From: Nitrospirota bacterium
Lineage (GTDB): Bacteria > Nitrospirota > JACRHL01
DNA length: 64,000 bases
Direction of reading: 5' to 3'
Assembly (NCBI GenBank): GCA_029881725.1
Contig: JAOUMB010000001.1
Span: forward strand, 17,321 to 81,320
Position 1 is the first letter of the stretch. The number at the start of each line of letters is the position of its first letter. The notes under the pieces were generated by a model. The model made no database searches. It saw nothing but the letters and a program-made list of their open reading frames with translations, and was not told the origin of the DNA. The translations under genes were made by a program, and so were the position numbers. Of the stretch, positions 1-55,064 are shown piece by piece.

Positions 1-128
1 GGCGAGTGTGTAGGACACTCCCGGCGCCAGCACAAACAGCAGTGCCTGATACAACAAAAATGTGGCGATGGTGTTGGCCGCTCCCAGCAACACAAATCGG
101 GCGCCCTGGCCCGCAGTTTCCCGGTGTC

Positions 129-1079
129 TCACGAGCCGCTGTCGACCAGACGCTGGAACGTGGCGTAATCGCGCACGTAGTCCGCCTCATCGTAAGGTAG
201 GGACGCCAGCACCATCAACACCGCGTCACGGGTGAACTTGTATTGAATGCCCCACACCCGGGGAGGAATGTACACCCCCGCGTTTGGACTGGTAAGGCGC
301 ACCTCCCGCGAGTAGCTGCCGTCGTCCACCACCACGCTCAGTTCACCGCGCATGGCCAGCAGAAACTGGTGACACTCCAGATGCGCGTGCTCGCCACGTA
401 CCCGGTCGTTGGGCACGTCATATACCATGAACATGCGCTGCGGCATGAACGGCAACAGGGTGTTGAAATCCGCCACTCCCAGGCTGCCGCGCAGGTCGCG
501 GAACTGGGGCAGGTGGATCAGCACGCTGTCACCCACCCCCAGGGATTCCCGGTTACCGACCCGCTCAGGTGCGGAGGGGACCGCGCCACGGGCGCTGTCC
601 GCCGGGGAGTGGGCCGCATCCACATAGCTATTGATGCGTGCGGGATTGCCATACACAATGGCCTTGGGCGGCACATTGCGGGTCACCACCGCCCCGGCGC
701 CCACCATGGCACCCGCGCCAATGGTGATGCCCGGCAGAATGGTGGCACCGCCGCCGATGGACGCCCCCGCCTCCACCACGGTTTCGGCAAAGCGCTCCGG
801 ATACTGGCGGGAGCGGGGGAAGCGGTCGTTGGTGAAGGTCACGTTGGGGCCGACGAACACGTCGTTCCCCAGCCGCACGCCGTTCCACAACTGCACCCCG
901 CACTTGACCGTCACCCGGTCCCCCACCCGCACATCGTTCTCGACAAACACGTGGTCGCAGAGGTTGCAGTCCTCCCCGATCACCGCCCCCGGAAGCACGT
1001 GGGCGAACGCCCAGATGCGGGTGCCGCGACCGACGGATTCGGATTCACACAGGGCCTGGGGATGAAGAAATACGCTCAT
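129..1079 (-). CDS. Bifunctional sugar-nucleotide enzyme: N-terminal left-handed beta-helix (hexapeptide-repeat) N-acetyltransferase fused to a C-terminal FdtA/WxcM-like cupin dTDP-4-keto-6-deoxyhexose 3,4-ketoisomerase
   Basis: 316-aa ORF. N-terminal half has hexapeptide-type repeats (IGEDCNLCDHVFVENDVRVGDRVTVKCGVQLWNGVRLGNDVFVGPNVTF, GAGAMVGAGAVVTRNVP). C-terminal half (FRDLRGSLGVADFNTLLPFMPQRMFMVYDVPNDRVRGEHAHLECHQFLLAMRGELSVVVDDG) resembles the FdtA/WxcM cupin ketoisomerase fold. Adjacent to an aminotransferase and a GT2 in the same orientation. Confidence 0.7.
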   Translation of the reverse strand: MSVFLHPQALCESESVGRGTRIWAFAHVLPGAVIGEDCNLCDHVFVENDVRVGDRVTVKCGVQLWNGVRLGNDVFVGPNVTFTNDRFPRSRQYPERFAETVVEAGASIGGGATILPGITIGAGAMVGAGAVVTRNVPPKAIVYGNPARINSYVDAAHSPADSARGAVPSAPERVGNRESLGVGDSVLIHLPQFRDLRGSLGVADFNTLLPFMPQRMFMVYDVPNDRVRGEHAHLECHQFLLAMRGELSVVVDDGSYSREVRLTSPNAGVYIPPRVWGIQYKFTRDAVLMVLASLPYDEADYVRDYATFQRLVDSGS

Positions 1080-1086
1080 GGCAGGG

Positions 1087-2061
1087 TCACTCGGAATCGC
1101 GGGCCGGGTAGGTGGCGCTGAGGGCCACCAGACTTTGTGGACGGCGGCGGGTGTTTTCGGCGATGCGCCACAGGTAGCACCCGATAAAGCCCTGGGTGAA
1201 CAGAAGGGTGAAGCCGACGAACAGGATCACCAGCATGATCGGCGTATAGCCCGGGACCTCGATCACCCCCAGCAGCCACGACAGGTAAATCACCACCGCC
1301 AGCACCAGAGTCACAACACACCCGATGGTACCCACCCACAGCAGCGCCAGAATCGGGAAATCCGAAAACGAAAAAATGCTGTCCAGCATGTACTGGAAGC
1401 GTTTGCCGAAACTCCACGCGCTCTTGCCGTGTTCCCGCTCCCGTCGACGGTACGGGACGAAGGCGCGCCGGTACCCAACCCAGAACAGTTGGGCCACCAG
1501 CGAACTGTTGGTCTCCTCGATCTGAAGCAATGCCCCGCGCACCTGCTCATTGCAGGCAAACACATCCACCCCGCCCGCCGGCACGTCGCGGATCACCAGC
1601 TTGCGGTAGACATACCAGAAGGCGCTGGATAAGGATTTGGTGAACCACCCGTCAGCACGGCCGGTGCGACGGCCGAACGCCACGTCAGCCTCACCCGCAC
1701 GCAGGATGCGGAAAAACTCAGTGATCAGTTCCGGCGGCTCCTGAAGATCGGCGGCCAGCACTGCAAAAAAGCGCCCGCGCGCCAGCTCCAGACCGGTACG
1801 AATGGCCGGAAAAGCACCGAAGTTGCGCGATAGCCCCACCAGTTGCGACTGGAAGGGCATGGCTGGAAGGCGTTCCGCCAGCATGGTATATGAATTGTCC
1901 GGTGAGCCGTCCACCACGAACACCACCTCGAAACCCGTACCAATCTCCCCCGCCAGCGCAATGAGGGCCTCCAGCAGGGAGGGGATGTTTTCCTCGTTGC
2001 GGTACACAGGGATCACCAACGAACAATTGATGCCGTCCGCCGTGGCACCCGCTTTCTGCAT
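1087..2061 (-). CDS. GT2 polyprenyl-phosphate glycosyltransferase (GtrB/ArnC/WxcL-like) with two C-terminal TM helices
   Basis: Start set at internal ATG (MQKAGATADGINCSLVIPVYRNEENI...); the track ORF extends upstream into a low-complexity Arg/Gly region. GT-A motifs (VIPVYNE, VVFVVDGSPD, DLQ) and a C-terminal hydrophobic tail typical of Und-P glycosyltransferases. 8-bp gap to the upstream aminotransferase and 7 bp to the downstream bifunctional gene. Confidence 0.75.
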   Translation of the reverse strand: MQKAGATADGINCSLVIPVYRNEENIPSLLEALIALAGEIGTGFEVVFVVDGSPDNSYTMLAERLPAMPFQSQLVGLSRNFGAFPAIRTGLELARGRFFAVLAADLQEPPELITEFFRILRAGEADVAFGRRTGRADGWFTKSLSSAFWYVYRKLVIRDVPAGGVDVFACNEQVRGALLQIEETNSSLVAQLFWVGYRRAFVPYRRREREHGKSAWSFGKRFQYMLDSIFSFSDFPILALLWVGTIGCVVTLVLAVVIYLSWLLGVIEVPGYTPIMLVILFVGFTLLFTQGFIGCYLWRIAENTRRRPQSLVALSATYPARDSE

Positions 2062-2069
2062 TGCAGTGC

Positions 2070-3173
2070 TCACGGCGCGCCAATGGTCCCGCACACGGTG
2101 CCGATTTCCGCGTCCGTCATTTCCGCAAAACAGGGCAGGCTCAGGATCCGGCCGGTGGCGCGTGCACTGTGGGTGAGGTCGTTCCGCACATGGGTAACCG
2201 ACGCCATCATCGGCTGATCGGGATCCAGCACCGGGTAATGAATGTCGGTGGCCACGCCGTGGGCCTGCAACCGGGCGCGTACGTCGTCCCGCTGATCGAC
2301 CTGCACCACGCACAGGTGCCCGACACTCCCCGGCTGGTCGGCCCCGGCAAAGTGCCATCCGGAAGGGGCGGCATCCCGGTACCGTTCAATGATCTCGCGG
2401 CGGCGCGCATTCCAATCGTCCAGCCGTTTCAGCTTTACCCGCAGCACGGCCGCCTGCAATTCATCCAGGCGGCTGTTGCGCCCATTGGGGATGGCGCTGT
2501 GATACTTGCGGTCCCATCCATACTGTTTAAAGGCCTTCACGGCCTCCGCGTGCGCCTCCGACTGACATACCACCGCCCCTCCGTCGCCCAGAGCGCCCAA
2601 GTTCTTGGTGGGATAAAAGCTGAAAGTGGCCAATTCTCCCATGGAACCGGCGCGGCAATCATCCAGACGCGCGCCGTGGGCCTGGGCACAGTCTTCCAGA
2701 ATCAGCACGCCCGGGTGCCCGGCGGCATCCAGCCGGCTCCGCAGTTGCGGCACGTCCACCACCGAACCGTACAGATGGGTAGCCACCACCACACGGGTGT
2801 TCGGCCCCACGGCATCAAGCGCCGCTTCAATGCTCATCAGCAGAGTGTCCGGACTCACATCCACATACACTGGCCGGGCACCAACCAGATTGCATGCAAC
2901 GGTGGTATATCCGCCCGCATTGGCCACGGTAATCACTTCGCTGTCCGGGCCACACCCGGCCACCCGCAGGGCAATTTCCAGAGCGTCGGTGCCGTTGGCC
3001 ACACTCACGCAGTGGGCGACACCCAGGTAATGGGCAAAGTCTGCCTCAAAGCCGGAGGTCTCCGAACCCAGCAGGTACCAGCCACTCTCCAGCACGCGCT
3101 GCACCGCCGTGTCGATCCCGGCTTTCAGATCTGAATACTGCCGACCCGGCGCATTGAAGGGAATTTTATTCAT
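2070..3173 (-). CDS. DegT/DnrJ/EryC1/StrS-family sugar aminotransferase (dTDP-3-keto-6-deoxyhexose 3-aminotransferase-like, WxcK/FdtB/QdtB-type)
   Basis: Start set at MNKIPFNAPGRQYSDL. PLP aminotransferase motifs (GWYLLGSETSGFEADFA, SFYPTKNLGALGDGGAVV, LPCF). First gene of a three-gene minus-strand cluster. Confidence 0.8.
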   Translation of the reverse strand: MNKIPFNAPGRQYSDLKAGIDTAVQRVLESGWYLLGSETSGFEADFAHYLGVAHCVSVANGTDALEIALRVAGCGPDSEVITVANAGGYTTVACNLVGARPVYVDVSPDTLLMSIEAALDAVGPNTRVVVATHLYGSVVDVPQLRSRLDAAGHPGVLILEDCAQAHGARLDDCRAGSMGELATFSFYPTKNLGALGDGGAVVCQSEAHAEAVKAFKQYGWDRKYHSAIPNGRNSRLDELQAAVLRVKLKRLDDWNARRREIIERYRDAAPSGWHFAGADQPGSVGHLCVVQVDQRDDVRARLQAHGVATDIHYPVLDPDQPMMASVTHVRNDLTHSARATGRILSLPCFAEMTDAEIGTVCGTIGAP

Positions 3174-3452
3174 GTGCAGGTGAATTTTTTTGATTGAGCA
3201 CAACCGTTTGGTTTGCCTTGTCGGTCGTAACCAGATTCGAGTTGAGCCACCGGATTTTCCCGCACACGAGAGACAAAAGCACTTGAAACCATATCCCCAG
3301 CGCCACTACCCTCCCATTACCCGACGGCGGATATCCTGCTGCCGCGCATTCTACGTTTTTCTCCTGCCCCTCACAAGGAACAGGCTACCCACCCCCTCCG
3401 GCGAACACTGTCACTACCCATTAGCCTCCGGGGCATCTTTGGCAACTCCCCC

Positions 3453-5258
3453 ATGCTCACAACGATCTCATACATAATCCTGTCCACAAGGGCACCGTTT
3501 TATCTGTTTTTCACTTCCCTTTTAACACTCCTTTTTATTACCTACCTCCACCCTTCCGAAGCGTTTTATGATGTCCACGATTATCTGGATGCGTTTTTTG
3601 TCTTCCTGGCCCAACGGGCGGAAATTCCGGATTTGTTCTGGAATCTGAATGCCCGAATGGAACGTCCGCTGGGGGGGATTTCTCTGAATGCGGTCGGGAT
3701 AAACGACTTTGGAATCGGCCAGAACCTGTTTTTATGGTTCGACCCTTTCACCGCGCAGGCCATTGCGGAACTGACCTCACGTGTGATCGGATTTGTCGGC
3801 ACGTTCCTGTTTGTCAGCAGGCATGTGATCCCTCCGCATGCCCGTTCGGGATCAGTATTTATCGCATCCCTCAGCGCTCTCATGTTTGCCATTGCGCCCC
3901 ACTACCCGGCTTTTTATGCAACCGTCACAATGGTGCCTCTGCTCGCATTCGCGGTAGCCAATATCTGGTCCGGAAAGCATCGCCAGACGGACTTTGCCAT
4001 CATTGGTGCATACCCGTTTTTTTCCTACTTTATATTTGGCGGTTTTGCCGTCACCGGAGTGCTTCTTTGGGTCGCAACAATCGCCTTCGTACTGCGCAAC
4101 AAATCAGCACTGATACTGGCACTTACCGGACTTTATCTTCTGCTGGCATACTGTTTGATGGAATACCGCCTGATTGTCGACCTTCTTTTCTCCACAACCC
4201 CTTCGATCCGTTCCGAGTTTATCCACCCGGAGTATTCGGGACTGCCCGCGATCCTGTCGTCGGCATGGGGCGTATTTCTGCACGGGCAACGCCATTTCAA
4301 AGGGGTTCTTTACGGATTCTCGGCGTACTTCGTCTACACCACATCTATCTTTTTTTTCGCTGCCGCCCTGGCACGGCGGTACGGGGTGCGTTTTCTCCCC
4401 GAGCTTCCCAGTCGATCACTTCTCTGGGCTATCCTCTCCATCGGATTGGCCGCACTTTGTTCCATCGTTTACGCGATGGATAACAACGGTCTTTTCAACC
4501 TCAAATACGACATCGGTCTTCCGTTTCAGTTCAACCGCATCATCGTATGGGTGCCTTTCCTCTGGGCGGTTGCTTTTGCGTCCACGCTCTCCTTGGCTAC
4601 TAGCTGGTTTCCCGGGATTCGTGTTCTCCTGCTGGTTGGAATTGCGGTTCTTTCGCTACAGGGAACCTGGGCTCATATCGACGGAATCCATCCCAAGCTC
4701 GGACTGCTCTCCTGCCGCATGTCGGGTAACGGTGAGTGCTCCAAATGGCTCGACCCCATGCGCCCCGCAGCGCAGGTTTCCATTCGCGCCTATTTCCGGC
4801 AGAAAACCTATGAAAAACTGGCTGGAGCCATTGGAAAACCACAGGACCAGTACCGGGTAGTAAGCGTTGGACTCAGCCCAATGACCGCAGTTTTTAACGG
4901 GTTCTTCACGCTTGATGGATACCTAACCAACTATCCCCTTTCCCATAAGGCGGCCTTTCGCAAAATCATTTCCGGTGAGTTGGAAAAGGATGATCGCTTG
5001 ATGCGGTATTTCGACACGTGGGGCGGTCGCGCACGTTTGTTTATTGCAGATCCTGATTCCTGGGCCGGTTTTCGGTCCATTCAACGACCGAACGCCGGAC
5101 CGGTAGACCTGGCCATCGATACCTGCCAGATTTGGTTCATGGGGGGGGAATATATATTTTCCCGTTACCTTTTGGTCAATGCGGAAGAGCTGAACCTTGA
5201 CCTCAAGGGGATCCTCGATGACATTTTTCTGTACGAGATACGCCCGGATTCGTGCTGA
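3453..5258 (+). CDS. Polytopic integral membrane protein (about 11-13 predicted TM segments plus a roughly 200-aa C-terminal soluble domain); candidate GT-C-fold (ArnT/GtrC/YfhO-like) periplasmic glycosyltransferase
   Basis: 601-aa ORF with many hydrophobic segments followed by a hydrophilic C-terminus. Markedly lower GC and AT-rich codons compared with its neighbours. Divergent from the aminotransferase-GT2-isomerase/acetyltransferase cluster. The GT-C assignment is by architecture and context only. Confidence 0.5.
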   Translation: MLTTISYIILSTRAPFYLFFTSLLTLLFITYLHPSEAFYDVHDYLDAFFVFLAQRAEIPDLFWNLNARMERPLGGISLNAVGINDFGIGQNLFLWFDPFTAQAIAELTSRVIGFVGTFLFVSRHVIPPHARSGSVFIASLSALMFAIAPHYPAFYATVTMVPLLAFAVANIWSGKHRQTDFAIIGAYPFFSYFIFGGFAVTGVLLWVATIAFVLRNKSALILALTGLYLLLAYCLMEYRLIVDLLFSTTPSIRSEFIHPEYSGLPAILSSAWGVFLHGQRHFKGVLYGFSAYFVYTTSIFFFAAALARRYGVRFLPELPSRSLLWAILSIGLAALCSIVYAMDNNGLFNLKYDIGLPFQFNRIIVWVPFLWAVAFASTLSLATSWFPGIRVLLLVGIAVLSLQGTWAHIDGIHPKLGLLSCRMSGNGECSKWLDPMRPAAQVSIRAYFRQKTYEKLAGAIGKPQDQYRVVSVGLSPMTAVFNGFFTLDGYLTNYPLSHKAAFRKIISGELEKDDRLMRYFDTWGGRARLFIADPDSWAGFRSIQRPNAGPVDLAIDTCQIWFMGGEYIFSRYLLVNAEELNLDLKGILDDIFLYEIRPDSC

Positions 5259-6106
5259 GGAAAGTCCCCCAGGTGCCCCAAATACCCCGTACCATCCTCA
5301 TCACCGGCGCCTCCTCCGGTATTGGCCGCTGCGCGGCGCTGATGTTCCGGGACCGGGGCTGGCGGGTGTTCGCCACCGCCCGCAAGGACGAGGACCTGGA
5401 GGCGCTGGAGGCGGAAAACGTGACCCCCATCCGTCTGGAACTGGCGGACACCGCCTCGGTGCAGTCCACCGCCGCGCAGGTGCTGAACGCCACCGGCGGG
5501 CGGCTGGACGCCCTGTTCAACAACGGCGCCTACGGCCAGAGCGGCGCCATCGAGGACCTGTCCCGCAGGGCGCTGGAAGAGCAGTTCGCCACCAACCTGT
5601 TCGGCACCGTGGAACTGACCAATGCGGTGCTGCCCGCCATGCGCGCCAACGGGCACGGGCGCATCGTGATGAACAGCAGCGTGCTGGGACTGGTGTCCCT
5701 GGCCTATCGGGGGGCCTACAACGCCAGCAAATATGCCCTGGAGGGGGTTTGCGACACCCTGCGGCTGGAGCTGAAAGGCTCCGGCATCCACGTCTGTCTG
5801 GTGGAGCCGGGGCCGATCCTTTCGCGTTTCCGGGCCAACTCCTATCTGGCCTTTCAGCGCCATATCGACGCGGAGGCCAGTGTGCACCGCGATCGCTACC
5901 GGGCCATGCGCGAGCGGCTCAACACGAAGGGCGCCGCCGTGCCCTTCACCCTGCCGCCGGAAGCGGTGGTGAAAAAGGTCATCCACGCGGTGGAAAGCCG
6001 ATCCCCACGCCCGCGCTACTACGTGACCTTCCCCACCTATCTGTTCGGTTTGTTACGCCGGGTACTGTCCACCCGCATGCTGGACCGGCTGCTGGCCCGG
6101 GTCTAA
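5252..6106 (+). CDS. Short-chain dehydrogenase/reductase (SDR) family oxidoreductase
   Basis: TILITGASSGIG Rossmann motif and NASKYALEG catalytic region (YxxxK). Start is uncertain: GTG at 5252 overlaps the upstream stop; GTG at 5273 is also possible. Confidence 0.8.
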   Translation: MLRKVPQVPQIPRTILITGASSGIGRCAALMFRDRGWRVFATARKDEDLEALEAENVTPIRLELADTASVQSTAAQVLNATGGRLDALFNNGAYGQSGAIEDLSRRALEEQFATNLFGTVELTNAVLPAMRANGHGRIVMNSSVLGLVSLAYRGAYNASKYALEGVCDTLRLELKGSGIHVCLVEPGPILSRFRANSYLAFQRHIDAEASVHRDRYRAMRERLNTKGAAVPFTLPPEAVVKKVIHAVESRSPRPRYYVTFPTYLFGLLRRVLSTRMLDRLLARV

Positions 6107-6116
6107 TCGATCGGGG

Positions 6117-6277
6117 CTGAACGACCACCCCGGCGCCACCCCGCCCATCCGCAACTATGGCCGTGCGCCTGGCACTTCTCCAGAATTCCAGGTTGCCCGG
6201 GGCCAACCTCAAACGGCGCTGAACGACCACCCCGGTGTCACCCCGCCCATCCGCAACTATGGCCGTGCGCCTAGCAC
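6117..6277. repeat. Two copies of a roughly 60-bp direct repeat (6117-6176 and 6218-6277, about 4 mismatches) separated by 41 bp
   Basis: ctgaacgaccaccccggcgccaccccgcccatccgcaactatggccgtgcgcctggcact versus ctgaacgaccaccccggtgtcaccccgcccatccgcaactatggccgtgcgcctagcact. The second copy includes the stop codon and last codon of the minus-strand GGDEF gene. Confidence 0.7.
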
Positions 6278-7644
6278 TCGGCGTGGACCACGCGGTTGCG
6301 GCCTTTGGATTTGGCAACATACAGGGCCTTGTCCGCCTTGGCCACCAGCGGGTCGATGCCCGCCCCGTGATCCGGGTAGGCGGCCACCCCGGCGCTCACC
6401 GTCACCCGCAGGGCCACCTTGCCCAGGTCGGTCACCTCCCGCGCCATCCGTTCGCGAATGCGCTCCGCCACGCCGTGGGCGCCGCTCAGACCGGTGCCGG
6501 GCAGCAGCACGGCAAATTCCTCACCGCCCAGCCGCGCCGGACGGTCGATGGTACGCACCTCCTCGCGCAGCACTTCCGCCAGCAGTTTCAGCACCCGGTC
6601 GCCGGTCTGGTGGCCGTGGCGGTCGTTGACCTGCTTGAAATGGTCCAGGTCCAGGATGATCAGGCCGAACGGTTGCGTGAAGCGCTCCGCCCGCGCCAGT
6701 TCCTCCTCCACATAGCGATGGAATGCGCGCCGGTTGGGCAGGCCGGTCAGTTCGTCGTGCAGCGACAGATATTCCAGCCGCTCGTGGGTACGCGCCAGAT
6801 CCTCGCCCATGCGGTTGAAGGCCGCCGCCAGTTGCCCCAGTTCATCCTTGCGGTCCAGCGCCACCGGCACCGAAAAATCGCCAGTGGCATACCGCTCCGC
6901 CGCCTGCTGCAAGGCGCCCAACGGCAGCACGATGGAGCGGGTCAGGCTGTAGCCGATGATCGCCGCCAGCCCCAGCGCCCCCCACAGCAGCCCCATCACC
7001 ACCGACAGGTCGCGCCGCTGGGCTTCACGGGCCACCACCCACTCGTTGTGAATGCGCCCCTCGATCAATTCATACAGCCGTCCCAGAATCTGGATGGTGT
7101 GGCCGGTGTGGCGGTCGAACTTGTTCATGGTGGCGATGCGCACCGCCTGCGGCATCTCGTCCTCCCGGAACAGGCGCCGGGCGTCGTCGCGGGCGGTGCG
7201 CCATTCGGCCACCGCCACCGCCATCAGCTGCCGTTCCACCCGCAGCAGGGCATCGCGGGTTTCCTCGCGTACCTCCAGGCTCCCTTCCGGGGCCTCCATC
7301 ACCCCCTGTGGCGGCTGCTCCGGGTTGCCGCGCCGGGCATAGCGCTCGAACAGGCCGTCGATCTCCGCCGACACCCGCTCGAAGCCCTCCGGATAGACGG
7401 GGTCGGCCTCGACCAGAAAATCGTGCACCGGCTGGGCGGAGGAATACACCAGTTGTTGCAGGCGCGATACCGGCACCATGGAATCCAGCGCCCGGTTGAC
7501 GATCTGCTGGTAGGAACCGCCCACCATGCCCAGAAACAGGAACGCCCACGCGGACAGGCCGAACACGCCCAGCGCCATCACCATCAGGGTGGCAATGGCG
7601 CGCGCACGCATGGACTGCTGCAAATAGCGGAACAGGCGGATCAA
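6271..7644 (-). CDS. Membrane-anchored diguanylate cyclase (TM - periplasmic sensor region - TM - HAMP-like - GGDEF)
   Basis: Two hydrophobic segments, then a GGDEF domain with RLGGEEF active-site motif, RxxD-type region and DHFKQVNDRHGHQTGD. Start ATG overlaps the stop of the upstream histidine kinase (ATGA). Confidence 0.85.
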   Translation of the reverse strand: MIRLFRYLQQSMRARAIATLMVMALGVFGLSAWAFLFLGMVGGSYQQIVNRALDSMVPVSRLQQLVYSSAQPVHDFLVEADPVYPEGFERVSAEIDGLFERYARRGNPEQPPQGVMEAPEGSLEVREETRDALLRVERQLMAVAVAEWRTARDDARRLFREDEMPQAVRIATMNKFDRHTGHTIQILGRLYELIEGRIHNEWVVAREAQRRDLSVVMGLLWGALGLAAIIGYSLTRSIVLPLGALQQAAERYATGDFSVPVALDRKDELGQLAAAFNRMGEDLARTHERLEYLSLHDELTGLPNRRAFHRYVEEELARAERFTQPFGLIILDLDHFKQVNDRHGHQTGDRVLKLLAEVLREEVRTIDRPARLGGEEFAVLLPGTGLSGAHGVAERIRERMAREVTDLGKVALRVTVSAGVAAYPDHGAGIDPLVAKADKALYVAKSKGRNRVVHAEC

Positions 7645-8969
7645 GCAGTCGGCTCCGTCTCTCCCACCGGCGGGATGGTGACCCGCGCCAGAAAGCCGCC
7701 CAACTCCTCCGACCGGCCAAAGGTGAGGGTTCCGCCATAGGAGTCGGCCACGTCCCCCGCAATGGCCAGACCCAGCCCGTGACCGGGGGCCGCCTCGTCC
7801 AGACGCACGCCCCGGCGGGCAATGTTTTTCAGTTCCTCGTCGGGACAGCCGGGGCCGTCATCCTCCACCCGCACCTGCATGCCGGGAACCTCCTCCACGG
7901 TCAGCCGCACCCGCGCGGTTGCCCACTTGCAGGCATTGTCCAGAAGATTCCCAAATAATTCAAGGAGATCCTCCCGATCGGCCCCGCAGTCCTTGCCCTT
8001 GGGCACGCGCACGTCGATGGTGACCTCGCGCTCCCGGTGGGCGGCGGACACGGCGCGGGCCAGGGCGGTGAGTTCCCGTTCCAGATCCACCCGCTCGCCG
8101 GGGCGGGCCTGTCCGGCCAGCCGGGCACGGCCCAGTTCGCGCTCCACCAGCCCGGTGATGCGCTCCACCTGACCGACGATTTCGGCGCGCGCCCCGGCGC
8201 TGTCCAGGCCGTCGTTTTCGGTGGTCTGGCGGATCACGGAGAGGGGTGTCTTGAGGGCATGGGCCAGATTGCCCATGGCGGTGCGGGAGCGCCCCACGCG
8301 GCGCTGGAGGGAGTCCAGCAACTGGTTGAACCCGGCCACCAGCGGCACCATTTCATCCGGCACCTGTTCGGTGACCCGGGTGGCCTGTCCGCGCTCCAGC
8401 GCCTCCAGGTCCGCCCGCACCCGCTTCAGCGGCTTCAGGGTGTACCCCACGATGGCCCGCTGCAACACCACCAGAAGGCTCAAAAACCCAAGCGAGATCA
8501 ACCCCACCTGCACCTGCATGGCACGCACCGCATGGCTCACGTGGGACAGGTCCTCCCCCACCGAAATCACCACCTGCACACCGCGCCGCGTGTAGGAGCG
8601 GGTAACCACCAGCAACGGCTGCCCACGGGGTCCACGGGCGCGCTGAATGGGGTGTTTGGTGTCGGGAAATCCCTCATCCCACAGGGAGCGGGACAGAAAT
8701 TCACTGGGACCGGCCACCACCCGGAAGTAGTGGCCGGAGAACGGGCGGGAGAACACCGGCCCCACCTGCCGGAGGCCCAGCGTGACGCCTCCCAGGGGAC
8801 CGATGCGCAGGGCTCCGAGTAGCGCCTCGGCGTCGTGCTCCAGCCGCTCCACCATGCGATCTTCGTAAATGGCCGGGGCCATCAGGCCGATCACCACGAA
8901 CTGGAGTGCAAACAGCACCACCAGACTGGCGCTCAACCCCCAGCTCAGACGTGCCTTGAGCGAGTTCAC
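7641..8969 (-). CDS. Sensor histidine kinase (two TM segments, periplasmic domain, HisKA + HATPase_c)
   Basis: H-box (HALKTPLSVIRQ), N-box (GNLLDNACKWA) and G-boxes (DDGPGCPDEE, GHGLGLAIAGD). Overlaps the response regulator gene by 4 bp. Confidence 0.85.
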   Translation of the reverse strand: MNSLKARLSWGLSASLVVLFALQFVVIGLMAPAIYEDRMVERLEHDAEALLGALRIGPLGGVTLGLRQVGPVFSRPFSGHYFRVVAGPSEFLSRSLWDEGFPDTKHPIQRARGPRGQPLLVVTRSYTRRGVQVVISVGEDLSHVSHAVRAMQVQVGLISLGFLSLLVVLQRAIVGYTLKPLKRVRADLEALERGQATRVTEQVPDEMVPLVAGFNQLLDSLQRRVGRSRTAMGNLAHALKTPLSVIRQTTENDGLDSAGARAEIVGQVERITGLVERELGRARLAGQARPGERVDLERELTALARAVSAAHREREVTIDVRVPKGKDCGADREDLLELFGNLLDNACKWATARVRLTVEEVPGMQVRVEDDGPGCPDEELKNIARRGVRLDEAAPGHGLGLAIAGDVADSYGGTLTFGRSEELGGFLARVTIPPVGETEPTA

Positions 8970-9625
8970 TGGCCCCCGAACACGTAGCCCTGGCCGCGCC
9001 GGGTCTGGATCATCTCCTTGCCCACCTTGTCGCGCAGGCGCTTGATGTAGACCTCGATCACGTTGCTGCCGCGCTCCGCGTCCAGGTCGTAGACATGTTC
9101 CTCCAGCCGCTCCTTGGACAGCACCCGCCCCCGGTTGAGCATCAGGGCGCGCAGCAGGCGGAACTCCACCCCGGTCAGGCGGTGGACGGTGCCGTTTACG
9201 GTGACCTGCTGGGTCTCCTCGTCCAGTTCCACCCCCTCCACCGCCAGCGGTCCCTGGGTGCGGCCCTGGCTGCGGCGGATCAGCGCCCCCATGCGGGCGA
9301 TCAGTTCCTTCATGTAAAACGGCTTGGACAGGTAATCGTCGGCTCCGGCGTCGAAGCCGTCCACCTTTTCATGCCACTGGCCGCGGGCGGTGAGCACGAT
9401 CACCGGCGTGGTGTTGCCCCGCTTGCGCCATGCCCGGAGTACGTCCAGCCCCGGTTTTCCCGGCAGACCCAGGTCGAGAATCACCGCGTCGTAGGGAAAC
9501 TGGTTGCCATAGATTTCGGCGCTTTCGCCGTTGCCGGTGCCGTCCACGGCGTAGCCCGATTTGGAAAGGGCGTCCGACAACTGGCTGCGCAACGATTCGT
9601 CGTCTTCAACCACCAGCACGCGCAT
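8966..9625 (-). CDS. OmpR/PhoB-family response regulator (REC + winged-helix DNA-binding domain)
   Basis: MRVLVVEDDESLRSQL...DAVILDLGLPGKPGLDVL...VIVLTARG receiver motifs. C-terminal wHTH (RLTGVEFRLLRALMLNRGRVLSKERLEEHVY...VIEVYIKRLRDKV). Confidence 0.9.
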   Translation of the reverse strand: MRVLVVEDDESLRSQLSDALSKSGYAVDGTGNGESAEIYGNQFPYDAVILDLGLPGKPGLDVLRAWRKRGNTTPVIVLTARGQWHEKVDGFDAGADDYLSKPFYMKELIARMGALIRRSQGRTQGPLAVEGVELDEETQQVTVNGTVHRLTGVEFRLLRALMLNRGRVLSKERLEEHVYDLDAERGSNVIEVYIKRLRDKVGKEMIQTRRGQGYVFGGQ

Positions 9626-9627
9626 GC

Positions 9628-9957
9628 TCAGTCCTCCTGCTCGCTGTCCAGAAGCTCGCCGGTGCGGGCGTCAAAAAAGAACTCCCACACCTCGCCGTCC
9701 TCGGTGAGCAGTTCGATCTCGTACACCAGCCGGTCGTCCCGCTCCTCCAGCTCCGCCTCCAGCAGTTCCCCCTTGCGCTCCTGCTGGGCACGTTCCAGCA
9801 GTTCCGACAGGGGCCGGATTTCGCCGGACATGCGCAGCTTGCGCATCTCGTCATATTCCAGGTCGCCGGCCAGTGCCGGGGCGCCACACCAGGGCGCCAC
9901 CAGCAGGGCCAGCAAAAGCGCCAGAATATGCCTGTGATCAGTCACGTTTCCTTCCAA
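9628..9957 (-). CDS. Small periplasmic PepSY-domain protein (YkoI-like)
   Basis: Signal peptide followed by a charged PepSY-like region (ELLEAELEERDDRLVYEIELLTEDGEVWEFFFDARTGELL). Sits immediately upstream of and overlapping the response regulator, as in many PepSY-two-component-system operons. Confidence 0.7.
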   Translation of the reverse strand: MEGNVTDHRHILALLLALLVAPWCGAPALAGDLEYDEMRKLRMSGEIRPLSELLERAQQERKGELLEAELEERDDRLVYEIELLTEDGEVWEFFFDARTGELLDSEQED

Positions 9958-10483
9958 ACCCGGGAATCACCACGTCGTGCTCGTTATAGTAGCCCTCCGC
10001 GGCCCGGGTGTGGCAAGCATTGCAGTTGGCAATGGTCTTGACCTCCGGGTTGTCGGCCAGCTTGCGCCGGGGAATTTCATTGTGCTCGTGACGGATGAAC
10101 GGAATGTCCGAAATCCGCTGCGGGGCGTCGATGCCCTTTTTGGCCAGCGAGCGCATGATGCGGGCGGAGCGCTTGTTGTCCACCCGGTCGGCGGCGTTTT
10201 CGGCCAGATAGGCGGTAATTTCGGCCTGATCCCCGGGGGGCAGTTCCGCGTTGTCGCCAAAGTGATCCGCCAGCCCGCCCATCAGGTTGCGCCAGCTCTT
10301 TTCGGGCAGCAGGCCCGGTTGGTAGGCAAAGTGGCAGGCGCCGCACTCCTCCGCGTACAGGGGGTTGGTGACCACCCCCACGCTGGAGCCCTTTTTGCTG
10401 CCGCCATCCGCATAAACCAGCGACATGCTGCCCATGAAGATGGCCACCCCCAGTGCCGTTGCGATCCAGTGTCGTGTTTGCAT
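9938..10483 (-). CDS. Periplasmic diheme cytochrome c
   Basis: Two CxxCH heme motifs (CGACH, CNACH) after a signal peptide. Start placed at the second ATG (MQTRHW), which has a GAAGGAG Shine-Dalgarno sequence 5 nt upstream. Confidence 0.75.
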   Translation of the reverse strand: MQTRHWIATALGVAIFMGSMSLVYADGGSKKGSSVGVVTNPLYAEECGACHFAYQPGLLPEKSWRNLMGGLADHFGDNAELPPGDQAEITAYLAENAADRVDNKRSARIMRSLAKKGIDAPQRISDIPFIRHEHNEIPRRKLADNPEVKTIANCNACHTRAAEGYYNEHDVVIPGFGRKRD

Positions 10484-10508
10484 ATGAGCTCCTTCGGTTT
10501 GCATGGCC

Positions 10509-11521
10509 TTACTGGGCCTGAATGAACATCAGCACGTCGCCCTTTTCCTGGGGCGTGCATTCGCGGCCAAGGGTCTCCTTGCAGTTCCGCAGGAGCCATT
10601 TTTCGATCTTTTTCACATCGGTCAGCCGATCGGGCTGCACCGAGGGGGCAATGGGATCGATGGGTTTTCCGGTCTTCTTGTGCTTGCCGGGTTTGGTCAT
10701 GTCGGCGGTGTGGCAGTCGGCACACTGGGTCTTTTTGCCCTCGACCGTATAGGTTCCGTTCCACAGGGTGCGTCCGGCCTCCACGGTGAACGGCCCGGCC
10801 CCCTGGGCCCGGTAGGCGTCCAGCCGGTCCGGCACCATGGATTGCCCGGCCAGGCCCTGCCCGGCGGCGGCCAGCACCAGCAGCAACACCACCCCGGCGG
10901 CGGCCCGCCCCTTCCAGGCGCCAGCGGCCCCCGTTTCGTCGTCATCGGTATCCATGTGCACCTCTTTGCGGCCCGTGACCATGGCACGGATCAGGTTTTC
11001 ACGATGAACGAACGAACTGGCCAGAATCCCCGCCAGATGCAGGCCCACCAGGAACAGGGTAAACCCGGCGAGCACCTCGTGGGCCTCTTCCAGCGGGTCC
11101 TCCAGATCGTGGTAGGGAGCCATGACGGCGGCCATCGGCCCCTGCCCCTCGTCCGCCCCGTACAGCATCATACCGCTGACCCCGGTGAGGGTGAGCGACA
11201 CCAGCAGGGCGATGACCATCCACGCGGCGGCCGGGTTGTGGCCCACATAGGCCTTGCCCCGGAACAGGGCCAGATCCTTCAGATAGGCCAGCGCCGCGCC
11301 GGGGCTGCGCACGAAGCTGGTAAAGCGGGCATGGCGGGTGCCGATCACCCCCCACACCAGACGGAACGCGACCAGCCCCATGATGAGGTAACCGGCGGTG
11401 GTGTGCAGGTCGGCAAAATCGTCCTCGGCGGTGAGCCAGGCCACCGCGAATGCGGTTACCAGCGACCAGTGAAAGATTCGCACCAGCGGATCCCAGACCT
11501 TGACGGTTTTTCGCGGATTCA
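10509..11521 (-). CDS. Cytochrome b561-family membrane cytochrome with a fused C-terminal periplasmic monoheme c-type domain
   Basis: Start placed at MNPRKTVKVWDPLVRIFHWSLV (GGAGG 5 nt upstream). Four TM segments with conserved His residues typical of the b561/Ni-Fe-hydrogenase b-type cytochrome family. C-terminal about 110 aa contains CADCH and resembles small DUF1924-type cytochrome c proteins that are normally separate genes. Confidence 0.75.
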
Positions 11522-53023: not shown

Positions 53024-53988
53024 CCCCGCACCGTGCCCTTCTCCCGCTCCGCGTGAAAATCCGCCACCGACTGGCGCACGCCGTCTTCCAGGCCGATGGT
53101 TGGCGTCCAGCCCAGCGCGGTGAGCCTGGACGTATCCAGCAGCTTGCGCGGGGTGCCGTCGGGTTTCGTCGCATCCCACACGATGTCGCCGGTAAAACCG
53201 GTGAGCTTTTGCACCAGCTCCGCCAGTTCACGGATAGAGATGTCCTTGCCCCATCCGGCGTTGATGAGCGGCATGGCGTCCTTGTCCGCATGCACCCGAT
53301 CGGCCAGATACAGGCAGGCGTCGGCCAGGTCGTCCACGTGCAGAAACTCGCGGCGCGGGGTGCCGGATCCCCACAGGGTGACGGTAGCGTCGCCCCGCTC
53401 GGCAGCTTCGGTGAACTTGCGGATCATGGCCGGCAGCACGTGGGAGCCGTTCAGGTCGTAGTTGTCGCCAGGGCCGTACAGGTTGGTGGGCATCACCGCG
53501 ATGTAGTCGGTGCCGTATTGCCGGTTATAGGCCTCGCACATGGAGATTCCGGCAATCTTGGCCACCGCGTAGGGGGCGTTGGTGGGCTCCAGCGGGCCGG
53601 TCAGGAGGTGGTCCTCCTTCATGGGCTGGGGGCACTCGCGGGGGTAGATGCAGGAGGAGCCGAGAAAGACCAGCCGCTGCACCCCGGACTTCCACGCCTG
53701 ATGAATCACGTTGTCCTGAATGGCCAGATTGTCGCGGATGAACTCCGCGGGAAAGGTGTTGTTGGCCAGGATTCCGCCCACTTTGGCGGCGGCCAGAAAC
53801 ACCACCTGGGGCCGTTCGGCGGAAAAGAAGTCCGCCACGTCGGCCTGACAGGTCAGGTCCAGTTCGGCGCGGGTGCGGGTGATGATGGATTCAAAGCCCG
53901 CCGCCGCAAGGCGCCGCACCAGCGCGGCACCCACCATGCCGCGATGGCCCGCCACGAACACGCGGGCCGTTTTGGCCAGTTCGCTCAT
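53020..53988 (-). CDS. fcl: GDP-L-fucose synthase (GDP-4-keto-6-deoxy-D-mannose 3,5-epimerase/4-reductase)
   Basis: [22 protein letters not shown] and YAVAKIAG motifs. Full-length WcaG/Fcl similarity. Confidence 0.9.
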
Positions 53989-55064
53989 TCGTGATGGACC
54001 CGCGTATCAATGGTGTGCCCGGCTTTTTTGAGGGTGTTCTCCCGCTCGGCCAGATCCAGATCGTGATCCACCATCATCGCCACCAGCCCGTCGATGTCCA
54101 CCTTCGGGTCCCACCCCAGCACCTTTTTGCTCTTGGTGGGGTCGCCCAGCAGCAGTTCCACCTCGGCGGGACGGAAGTAGCGGGGATCGATCTCCACGAA
54201 CTGCTCCCAATCCAGTTCCAGCCGCCCGAATACCTTCTGCACGAATTCGCGCACCGAGTAGGTCTTGCCGGTGGCGATCACAAAATCGTCCGGGGTGTCC
54301 TGTTGCAGCATGCGCCACATGGCTTCCACATAATCGCCCGCAAAACCCCAGTCGCGCTTGGCGTCCATGTTGCCCAGATACAGCTTGTCCTGAAGCCCCA
54401 GCTTGATGCGGGTGGCGGCGCGGGTGATCTTGCGGGTCACAAAGGTTTCGCCGCGGCGGGGGGACTCGTGGTTGAACAGGATGCCGTTGGTGGCAAACAT
54501 GTCGTAGGCCTCCCGGTGGTTCACCGTCTGCCAGTAGCCGAATACCTTGGCCACCGCATAGGGGCTGCGCGGGTGGAACGGGGTGCTTTCGGTCTGCGGG
54601 GTTTCACGCACCTTGCCATACATCTCGGAGGAGCAGGCCTGATAAAAGCGCACCTCGTGCCCGGTGCGGTCCCGGTAGTCCCGCAGGGCCTCCAGCAGGC
54701 GCAGGGTGCCCACCGCCACCACGTCGGCGGTATACACCGCTTCGTCGAAGGACACCTTCACGTGGGACTGGGCGCCCAGGTTGTATACCTCGTCCGGCTT
54801 CACCTGCTCCACGATGTGACGCAGGTTGGCACCGTCGGCCAGATCACCGTAATGCAGAAACAGGCGCGCCCCCTTCTGGTGCGGATCCTGATAGATATGA
54901 TCGATGCGCTGGGTATTGAAGGTGGAGGCGCGGCGGATGATCCCGTGCACCTCGTACCCCTTGTCCAGCAGCAACTCGGCCAGATACGAGCCGTCCTGTC
55001 CGGTAATTCCGGTAATCAGTGCAACCTTGCGTTCACTCGACACGATGTCCTCCACACGCGACAA
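53985..55064 (-). CDS. gmd: GDP-mannose 4,6-dehydratase
   Basis: [50 protein letters not shown] and [10 protein letters not shown] are canonical Gmd. 4-bp overlap with fcl. Confidence 0.95.

Follow-up and report, generated by a model that had tools for sequence, protein, structure and literature searches.

In Xanthomonas, the O-antigen loses its N-acetylfucosamine (FucNAc) side branches when wxcK or wxcN is mutated (PMC4878081), and transposon mutants of X. hortorum in wxcK and wxcO are phage-resistant (PMC12573098). In Listeria monocytogenes, galactosylation of lipoteichoic acid requires GtlB, an extracellular glycosyltransferase of the GT-C fold, and is abolished by the substitutions D35A and D38A; at the time of this 2018 work there was no Pfam family for GtlB (PMC5836110). 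We describe here a locus in which a cassette of the WxcK-L-M-N type lies beside a gene of the GtlB family. It occupies the left end of a 64,000-nucleotide stretch of a Nitrospirota contig (JAOUMB010000001.1, positions 17,321 to 81,320 of the forward strand), referred to below as the window. We consider it likely that its genes form a five-gene extracytoplasmic glycosylation module of the three-component type with built-in sugar tailoring. The locus adds a new example to a known type of system and leaves the accepted three-component glycosylation mechanism unchanged. Its features are as follows (aa, amino acids).

1–132, minus strand: gene cut by the window edge after its first 44 codons, for a small membrane protein of the GtrA/WxcN family (PF04138), proposed flippase for the undecaprenyl phosphate (Und-P)-linked sugar
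129–1079, minus strand: WxcM/FdtD-type bifunctional enzyme, 316 aa (PF00132 and PF05523; PDB 4MZU)
1087–2061, minus strand: WxcL/GtrB/ArnC/GtlA-type enzyme of glycosyltransferase family 2 (GT2), 324 aa (PF00535; two C-terminal transmembrane helices)
2070–3173, minus strand: WxcK-type DegT-family pyridoxal phosphate-dependent aminotransferase, of the sugar C-3 aminotransferase type, 367 aa (PF01041)
3174–3452: divergent intergenic region between the wxcK-type gene and the GT-C gene, 279 bp, GC 55%
3453–5258, plus strand: glycosyltransferase of GT-C fold, GtlB family (Pfam DUF6044), 601 aa (PF19510; about 11 transmembrane helices)

The predicted glycosyltransferase of the GtlB family

The 601-aa protein matches Pfam DUF6044 (PF19510) from residue 11 to residue 589, covering positions 6–550 of the 564 in the profile (E=3e-96; 323.5 bits for a cut-off of 27). 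A word-indexed protein search returned a single relative, and an exhaustive HMMER scan was required to reveal the extent of the family: 1,759 representative clusters (50% identity) were retrieved, the nearest being only 35% identical to the 601-aa protein. The contig carrying this nearest relative (P0003) is 4.7 kb long, too short for gene context. Many phyla of bacteria have members of DUF6044, and so do archaea, for instance Methanothrix, Methanocalculus and Promethearchaeum, the last an Asgard archaeon. A literature search on the name 'DUF6044' found no mention of it among the papers searched.

The link to GtlB came from a tblastn search of phage records, which gave a match in GenBank OR846718.1 ('UNVERIFIED_ORG Listeria phage LM 4-11-1'). 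The open reading frame (ORF) at positions 5749–7428 of this record encodes 559 aa and carries D35-N-L-D38-S39 exactly as in the published numbering of GtlB (Lmo0626). Because this ORF scores 727.9 bits on PF19510, DUF6044 is, judged by sequence, the family of GtlB. The Listeria and Nitrospirota proteins are 28% identical (E=5e-44), and VHD43YLD46 of the window protein is aligned with IHD35NLD38 of GtlB.

The Listeria record itself, filed as a phage, contains chromosomal genes of Listeria, including those for a 1590-aa LPXTG surface protein, GtlB and a GDSL-like hydrolase, and looks like host DNA. Carriage of DUF6044 by phages was considered and rejected for these Listeria 'phage' records, which are unverified contigs with chromosomal genes. 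Two human-gut contigs labelled 'Bacteriophage sp.' also match DUF6044.

Sequence searches of the PDB, whether with the single 601-aa protein or with a 99-sequence profile, gave no meaningful match. Its GT-C nature came to light only by comparison of folds. The AlphaFold model, built with 99 homologues, is confident, with a predicted local distance difference test score (pLDDT) of 89.8 and a predicted template modelling score (pTM) of 0.91. In it, about 11 helices span the membrane as far as residue ~402, and a C-terminal region of ~200 aa with mixed α/β structure comes after them; the sequence contains 10 strongly hydrophobic 19-mers. An earlier reading of the DNA letters alone (hereafter the sequence-only reading) had pictured about 12 transmembrane segments and a soluble C-terminal domain of roughly 200 aa. 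This picture is close to the model. Fold comparison of the model retrieved GT-C glycosyltransferases only, the best matches being protein O-mannosyltransferases and oligosaccharyltransferases. No transporter, Wzy polymerase or ligase was present among the top structural matches. The GT-C-like character proposed by the sequence-only reading is thus borne out by the fold of the model and by membership in the family of GtlB.

The first aspartate of the motif, D43, is invariant in the 99 family members compared, while D46 is conserved in 89 of them and replaced by Glu in 4 more. In the model, D43-x-x-D46 starts 12 residues past the end of the helix formed by residues 2–31, at the beginning of a loop helix (residues 41–55). 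It is held by loop 1 (residues 32–97), which is predicted to be extracytoplasmic. Lysines and arginines concentrate in the predicted inner loops of the protein. Since loop 32–97 would lie outside, as in GtlB, about 11 helices would also place the C-terminal domain of ~200 aa outside by helix parity, and both the positive-inside rule and a co-varying pair of cysteines point to the same extracytoplasmic location. Over the 99 sequences, C558 and C601 are both present in 9 and both absent from 88, with C558 alone in 1 and C601 alone in 1. This co-occurrence suggests a disulfide bond, as would suit a periplasmic domain.

The donor cassette and its operon

The minus-strand genes had been read from the sequence as a wxcK/L/M-type set made of a DegT aminotransferase, a GtrB/ArnC-like GT2 enzyme and an FdtA–hexapeptide acetyltransferase fusion, and the family and structure matches agree with this assignment. 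The WxcM-like protein carries an N-terminal Hexapep domain and an FdtA cupin at residues 186–311 (PF05523, E=3e-45). It aligns end to end, over residues 5–311, with the 'WxcM-like protein' FdtD of Shewanella denitrificans (PDB 4MZU, E=9e-101). By homology, its N-terminal left-handed β-helix would be an N-acetyltransferase and its C-terminal cupin a nucleoside diphosphate (NDP)-4-keto-6-deoxyhexose 3,4-ketoisomerase. The cupin retains the catalytic His-x-His motif of FdtA (RGEHAH). At the two cupin positions reported to set the stereochemistry at C-4, the window protein has Arg and Gly, the same pair as S. denitrificans FdtD. From the Holden-lab literature we take these positions to be R17 and H97 in FdtA, and Y17 and R97 in QdtA. 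A choice between 3-acetamido-3,6-dideoxygalactose (Fuc3NAc) and 3-acetamido-3,6-dideoxyglucose (Qui3NAc) was attempted from these residues and given up: galacto and gluco forms are not distinguishable there, because the Arg/Gly pair of FdtD fits neither the FdtA nor the QdtA pattern.

The GT2 gene was listed as a 423-aa ORF, which is an upstream over-extension; on the source contig the gene is called at 324 aa. The protein matches PF00535 (E=9e-21) and the structures of GtrB (5EKP, E=5e-48) and ArnC (9HWJ, E=8e-30), in both cases over residues 12–314, including the C-terminal membrane hairpin. Two hydrophobic helices can be read from the sequence at its C-terminus. Similarity to the NCBIfam models PgfS and ArnC is full-length and falls under their equivalog cut-offs. 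The role proposed for this enzyme is that of a polyprenyl-phosphate glycosyltransferase. The DegT protein (PF01041, E=4e-90) has as its best solved relatives 7B0D, DesV (2OGA, E=3e-68) and QdtB (3FRK, E=2e-64); DesV and QdtB act at sugar C-3, on deoxythymidine diphosphate (dTDP)-sugars. The isomerase, C-3 aminotransferase and N-acetyltransferase of the dTDP-3-acetamido-3,6-dideoxyhexose pathway are thus all encoded in the cassette.

The sequence-only reading had seen no GtrA-like flippase. This apparent absence arises because the window edge cuts the gene. A GtrA-like ORF starts with the GTG at 132–130 on the minus strand, overlaps the TGA stop of the WxcM-type gene as GTGA and exits through the left edge of the window; its translation begins MRHRETAGQGARFVLLGAANTIATFLLYQ... 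In two longer contigs with the same DNA the gene is complete and encodes 134 aa, matching PF04138 over positions 1–115 of 117 with 26.7 bits (cut-off 26.1). The four ORFs on which the earlier proposal of a four-gene module was based are all present, with family matches far above chance; the GtrA-family gene makes the module one of five genes.

The minus-strand genes are separated by 8 and 7 nt and, at the last junction, overlap by the GTGA just described. The order of the operon is K-L-M-N, as in Xanthomonas. The 279-bp divergent region presumably carries promoters; the search of this region gave a single weak sigma-70-like match, not above those in shuffled sequences. The 601-aa gene has a GC content of 52%, and of 60% at third codon positions (GC3), compared with 62–68% and 74–88% in its neighbours. 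Judging by this deviation, the gene was probably acquired horizontally. On the source contig, the left flank of the operon encodes an RND pump, a TetR regulator and a lysylphosphatidylglycerol (LPG) synthase, and no second large polytopic membrane gene is found among the flanking genes.

To the right of the GT-C gene, a short-chain dehydrogenase/reductase (SDR) gene lies on the plus strand at 5252–6106. It begins with GTG and shares 7 nt with the end of the GT-C gene. The gene has a GC content of 67%, and its product is PRK05993-like (E=3e-111, just under the cut-off). It was considered as a member of the module and rejected, having no homologue near DUF6044 in 80 other loci, and is probably unrelated. 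Directly past it, at 6271–9625 on the minus strand, lies an overlapping three-gene operon for a response regulator, a PhoQ-like histidine kinase and a HAMP-GGDEF protein.

Gene neighbourhoods of DUF6044 and of the cassette

The surroundings of DUF6044 were analyzed within 8 kb in the best 80 of 300 loci from reference genomes of bacteria and archaea, and a GT2 gene was counted as linked when its product could be aligned with 270 or more of the 325 residues in the window WxcL. A full-length GtrB-like GT2 gene was found in 41 of the 80 loci, on the same strand in 36 and within 300 bp in 18. Typical genomes hold few GtrB-like GT2 enzymes, and for this reason the linkage is a strong enrichment, as reckoned from that small number rather than from a computed background. 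None of the 80 loci is from Xanthomonas.

Seven loci from Syntrophomonadaceae carry FdtA, acetyltransferase, GT2, DegT and DUF6044 genes on one strand. A GtrA gene is detectable in 4 of these 7, as well as in an eighth locus that lacks FdtA and acetyltransferase matches. RmlA and/or RmlB genes lie directly upstream in all seven, with both present in 5 and RmlB only in 2, one of which is cut by the contig end. In one locus (L010), the upstream pair scores 488.8 bits for RmlA (cut-off 360.65) and 461.3 bits for RmlB (cut-off 365.1). An operon of this type would supply every step that we propose, starting from glucose-1-phosphate and ending in extracytoplasmic transfer by the GtlB-family enzyme. 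The same locus has a further ORF of 574 aa (9622–11346), which overlaps the end of the DUF6044 gene and matches no NCBIfam model.

Three archaeal loci, from Promethearchaeum syntrophicum MK-D1 (L059), Methanothrix (L020) and Methanocalculus (L007), all have a GtrB-like GT2 gene near the DUF6044 gene. RmlA/RmlB-like and DegT genes are also found near DUF6044 in those of Promethearchaeum and Methanothrix.

Seen from the donor cassette, the picture is one of varied partners. WxcM-type fusions at 54–69% identity are very common, and the order K-L-M(-N) is frequent. We compared 83 loci of the closest WxcM cassettes, 80 from metagenomes and 3 others (L087–L089), with 62 large membrane ORFs beside them. 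A large polytopic membrane protein adjoins most of the close WxcK-L-M cassettes that have enough flanking sequence, and its family varies. In Mesorhizobium the partner belongs to PF14264 (GtrII) and the cassette lies beside wzm/wzt; on another contig the partner belongs to PF13231 (PMT_2). In a metagenome-assembled genome of Aquimonas sp., the gene downstream of the K-L-M cassette (L087, 8944–10929) encodes a 661-aa protein with a fused GtrA domain and no match to DUF6044, possibly a flippase–transferase fusion. The 62 membrane ORFs fall into 28 BLAST clusters. DUF6044 was found in none of these 62 ORFs at the 83 cassettes (best E-value 2.2, for a positive control of 7.5e-154). The overall picture is that of a conserved donor cassette joined by interchangeable acceptor-specific transferases.

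Proposed route, rival explanations and comparison with known systems

The gene identities, the operon structure, the fold and family of the GT-C protein, its conserved motif and the recurrent linkage are the observations; from them we infer what the enzymes do, which sugar they make, how the GT-C protein sits in the membrane and where the sugar goes. In the proposed route, RmlA and RmlB from other parts of the genome would produce dTDP-4-keto-6-deoxyglucose, which the cupin half of WxcM would isomerise to the 3-keto sugar. The WxcK-like DegT enzyme would then aminate C-3, and the acetyltransferase half of WxcM would N-acetylate the product to dTDP-3-acetamido-3,6-dideoxyhexose, either Fuc3NAc or Qui3NAc. 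On the inner side of the membrane, the WxcL-like GT2 enzyme would load this sugar onto undecaprenyl phosphate, and the GtrA-family protein would help the Und-P-sugar to reach the periplasmic face. There, the GtlB-family enzyme, with its D43-x-x-D46 loop in the periplasm, would transfer the sugar to an already exported glycan. The most likely acceptor would be an O-antigen-like polymer. The proposal that the donor cassette and the GT-C protein constitute a decoration system of the GtrB/GtrC style is supported by the GT-C fold, by the GtlB family and by the Syntrophomonadaceae operons.

The supply of the precursor would lie outside the locus. Neither rmlA nor rmlB occurs within the 64-kb window or the adjoining 10 kb of left flank, so that the module is not self-contained, contrary to the earlier suggestion. 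A tblastn search with RmlA gave no match there, and RmlB matched only the paralogues Gmd, PseB and Fcl at 22–32% identity. The epimerase/dehydratase genes at 53–55 kb and at 50 kb were considered as RmlB and rejected, being those of Gmd, an Fcl-like protein and PseB.

These genes belong to a large glycan cluster of the ABC-transporter (wzm/wzt) type, which extends from 35380 to 57300, mostly on the minus strand. It includes Gmd at 53985–55043 (TIGR01472, 552.7 bits for a cut-off of 415) and an Fcl-like GDP-fucose synthase (475.6 bits for a cut-off of 500), together with an adenosine 5′-phosphosulfate (APS) kinase, wzm, wzt with a Wzt_C domain, and PseB above cut-off. The cluster further encodes a DegT enzyme, a CMP-sugar transferase, a 521-aa GNAT protein, a NeuB-like synthase, an MptE-like protein, at least six GT2 enzymes, a hexapeptide acetyltransferase, a sulfotransferase and a glycosyltransferase of family 4 (GT4). 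This gene content suggests a glycan that contains fucose and pseudaminic acid and may be sulfated; the genes at 35–55 kb would make GDP-fucose and a pseudaminic-type sugar, not a rhamnan. The glycan is a plausible target of the module, with ~30 kb of unrelated genes between the two loci.

Several points weigh against the five-gene module. Its precursor genes are missing from the window and left flank, the match of the small membrane protein to GtrA only just passes the Pfam threshold, and the pairing of a WxcK-L-M cassette with DUF6044 is uncommon. The activity of GtlB rests on genetics only (PMC5836110). Finally, the divergent orientation and the deviant GC and GC3 of the GT-C gene are compatible with a later insertion, functionally untied to the operon. 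On that account the 601-aa protein would be a recent horizontal arrival using another Und-P-sugar synthase, the wxcK-L-M-N genes would use a GT-C enzyme encoded outside the window, and their adjacency would be coincidental. The lack of DUF6044 at the 83 closest WxcM cassettes fits this explanation, and so do the 39 of 80 DUF6044 loci with no GT2 gene within 8 kb, which allow for unlinked partners such as GtlA (lmo0933) and GtlB (lmo0626) of Listeria. However, the operon has no other large polytopic membrane gene in its flanks, and the same functional set recurs in Syntrophomonadaceae with DUF6044 as the last gene of the operon. Moreover, low GC and swapping are seen for the equivalent membrane gene of Xanthomonas too; the wxcO mutant of X. 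hortorum nevertheless shares the phage resistance of the wxcK mutant. We therefore regard a coincidental insertion as improbable.

A different acceptor is a more serious possibility, although still an unlikely one: the module would work as proposed, with its sugar going to a protein (S-layer or pilin), to lipid A or core, or to another envelope polymer. The best structural matches of the GT-C model, protein O-mannosyltransferases and oligosaccharyltransferases, are in line with this, as are the presence of DUF6044 in archaea and in Gram-positives, where the acceptors are teichoic acids, and the 30 kb that separate the locus from the nearest polysaccharide cluster. However, structural similarity among GT-C enzymes mirrors their shared membrane core and not the type of acceptor, and the same donor cassette lies in or beside wzm/wzt O-antigen loci in Xanthomonas and Mesorhizobium. 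The tailoring enzymes might also start from a precursor other than a dTDP-sugar, for example GDP-4-keto-6-deoxymannose supplied by the Gmd of the window, and yield a different amino-dideoxy sugar. The bona fide gmd and the lack of rmlA and rmlB in the window would favour such a route. It is made highly improbable by the full-length match of the WxcM-like protein to the dTDP-sugar enzyme FdtD, by the use of dTDP-sugars by QdtB and DesV, the closest solved aminotransferases, and by the RmlA and RmlB genes that precede the homologous set in Syntrophomonadaceae.

From the five genes, this uncultured Nitrospirota bacterium is predicted to carry a 3-acetamido-3,6-dideoxyhexose as a decoration of an envelope glycan. 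The added value of the locus is modest: DUF6044 is recognised as the GtlB family and is seen to partner donor cassettes for 3-acetamido-3,6-dideoxyhexoses as well. Since GtlB, characterised by genetics, is one of its members and its GT-C fold is clear, the family could allow thousands of DUF6044 genes of 'unknown function' (~1,760 clusters) to be annotated as extracytoplasmic glycosyltransferases that use lipid-phosphate-linked sugars. The modular pairing of wxcK-L-M-N with many unrelated membrane partners helps genome-based prediction of phage receptors, antigenic variation and the diversity of surface glycans. More tentatively, and with somewhat less than even confidence, we propose that DUF6044 is not a teichoic-acid speciality of Listeria and Bacillus but a GT-C family of bacteria and archaea serving as one of many interchangeable 'acceptor modules' for Und-P-sugar cassettes. 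Its horizontally acquired copy would here re-target a Fuc3NAc/Qui3NAc cassette to a new acceptor, possibly the fucose-, pseudaminic acid- and sulfate-related glycan of the 35–57 kb cluster. In that case its GT-C protein would be the first GtlB-family enzyme to use an amino-dideoxyhexose donor in a diderm.

Among known systems, region 3 of the Xanthomonas campestris wxc cluster (wxcK-L-M-N-O), responsible for Fuc3NAc branches of the O-antigen, shares with the window the same four proteins in the same K-L-M-N order, the Xanthomonas order being taken from X. hortorum locus tags XHV734_4236 to 4240. The domain order of WxcM is also the same. In both cases a large membrane protein adjoins the cassette, and its gene is low in GC (53.5% for XCC0613) and seemingly exchanged horizontally; that of Xanthomonas varies between strains. 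The membrane partner is upstream and divergent in the window, whereas that of Xanthomonas is downstream; it has 601 aa, compared with 750 aa for WxcO of strain B100 and 730 aa for XCC0613. Unlike the Xanthomonas genes, the window locus is not within a wzm/wzt cluster. The partner is a DUF6044 protein in the window, unlike the GtrA-fused 661-aa protein of the xanthomonad relative Aquimonas.

The GtlA/GtcA/GtlB system of L. monocytogenes follows the same logic, with a GtrB-like GT2 enzyme, a GtrA-family protein and an extracytoplasmic GT-C enzyme. The latter belongs to the same DUF6044 family and has its essential DxxD motif on the first of its extracellular loops, as is predicted for the window protein. 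However, GtlB is only 28% identical to the window protein, and the Listeria genes are dispersed (lmo0933, lmo2549 and lmo0626) whereas those of the window are clustered. The sugar also differs: Listeria transfers galactose from uridine diphosphate galactose (UDP-Gal), whereas the window cassette is predicted to provide an acetamido-dideoxyhexose through its own tailoring enzymes. NCBI names the organism a Nitrospirota bacterium; this phylum is diderm and would not be expected to have lipoteichoic acid, and therefore the acceptor must differ from that of Listeria.

The GtrA-GtrB-Gtr(type) systems of Shigella and Salmonella glucosylate the O-antigen, and the ArnC-ArnT pair modifies lipid A. The window GT2 enzyme aligns full-length with the GtrB and ArnC structures, and a GtrA-family protein is present. 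The window GT-C protein belongs neither to PF14264 (GtrII) nor to PF13231 (PMT_2), both of which are cassette partners in other genomes. The predicted donor sugar differs from those of the Gtr and Arn systems, and no phage-associated genes surround the window locus. For the tailoring enzymes, FdtD of S. denitrificans, a bifunctional acetyltransferase–isomerase, has a domain order identical to that of the window WxcM-like protein. Compared with the FdtA/B/C and QdtA/B/C pathways, the window cupin retains the His-x-His pair and is accompanied by a QdtB/DesV-like aminotransferase. At the two stereochemistry positions its Arg/Gly pair, which it shares with FdtD, departs from the pattern of FdtA as well as from that of QdtA.

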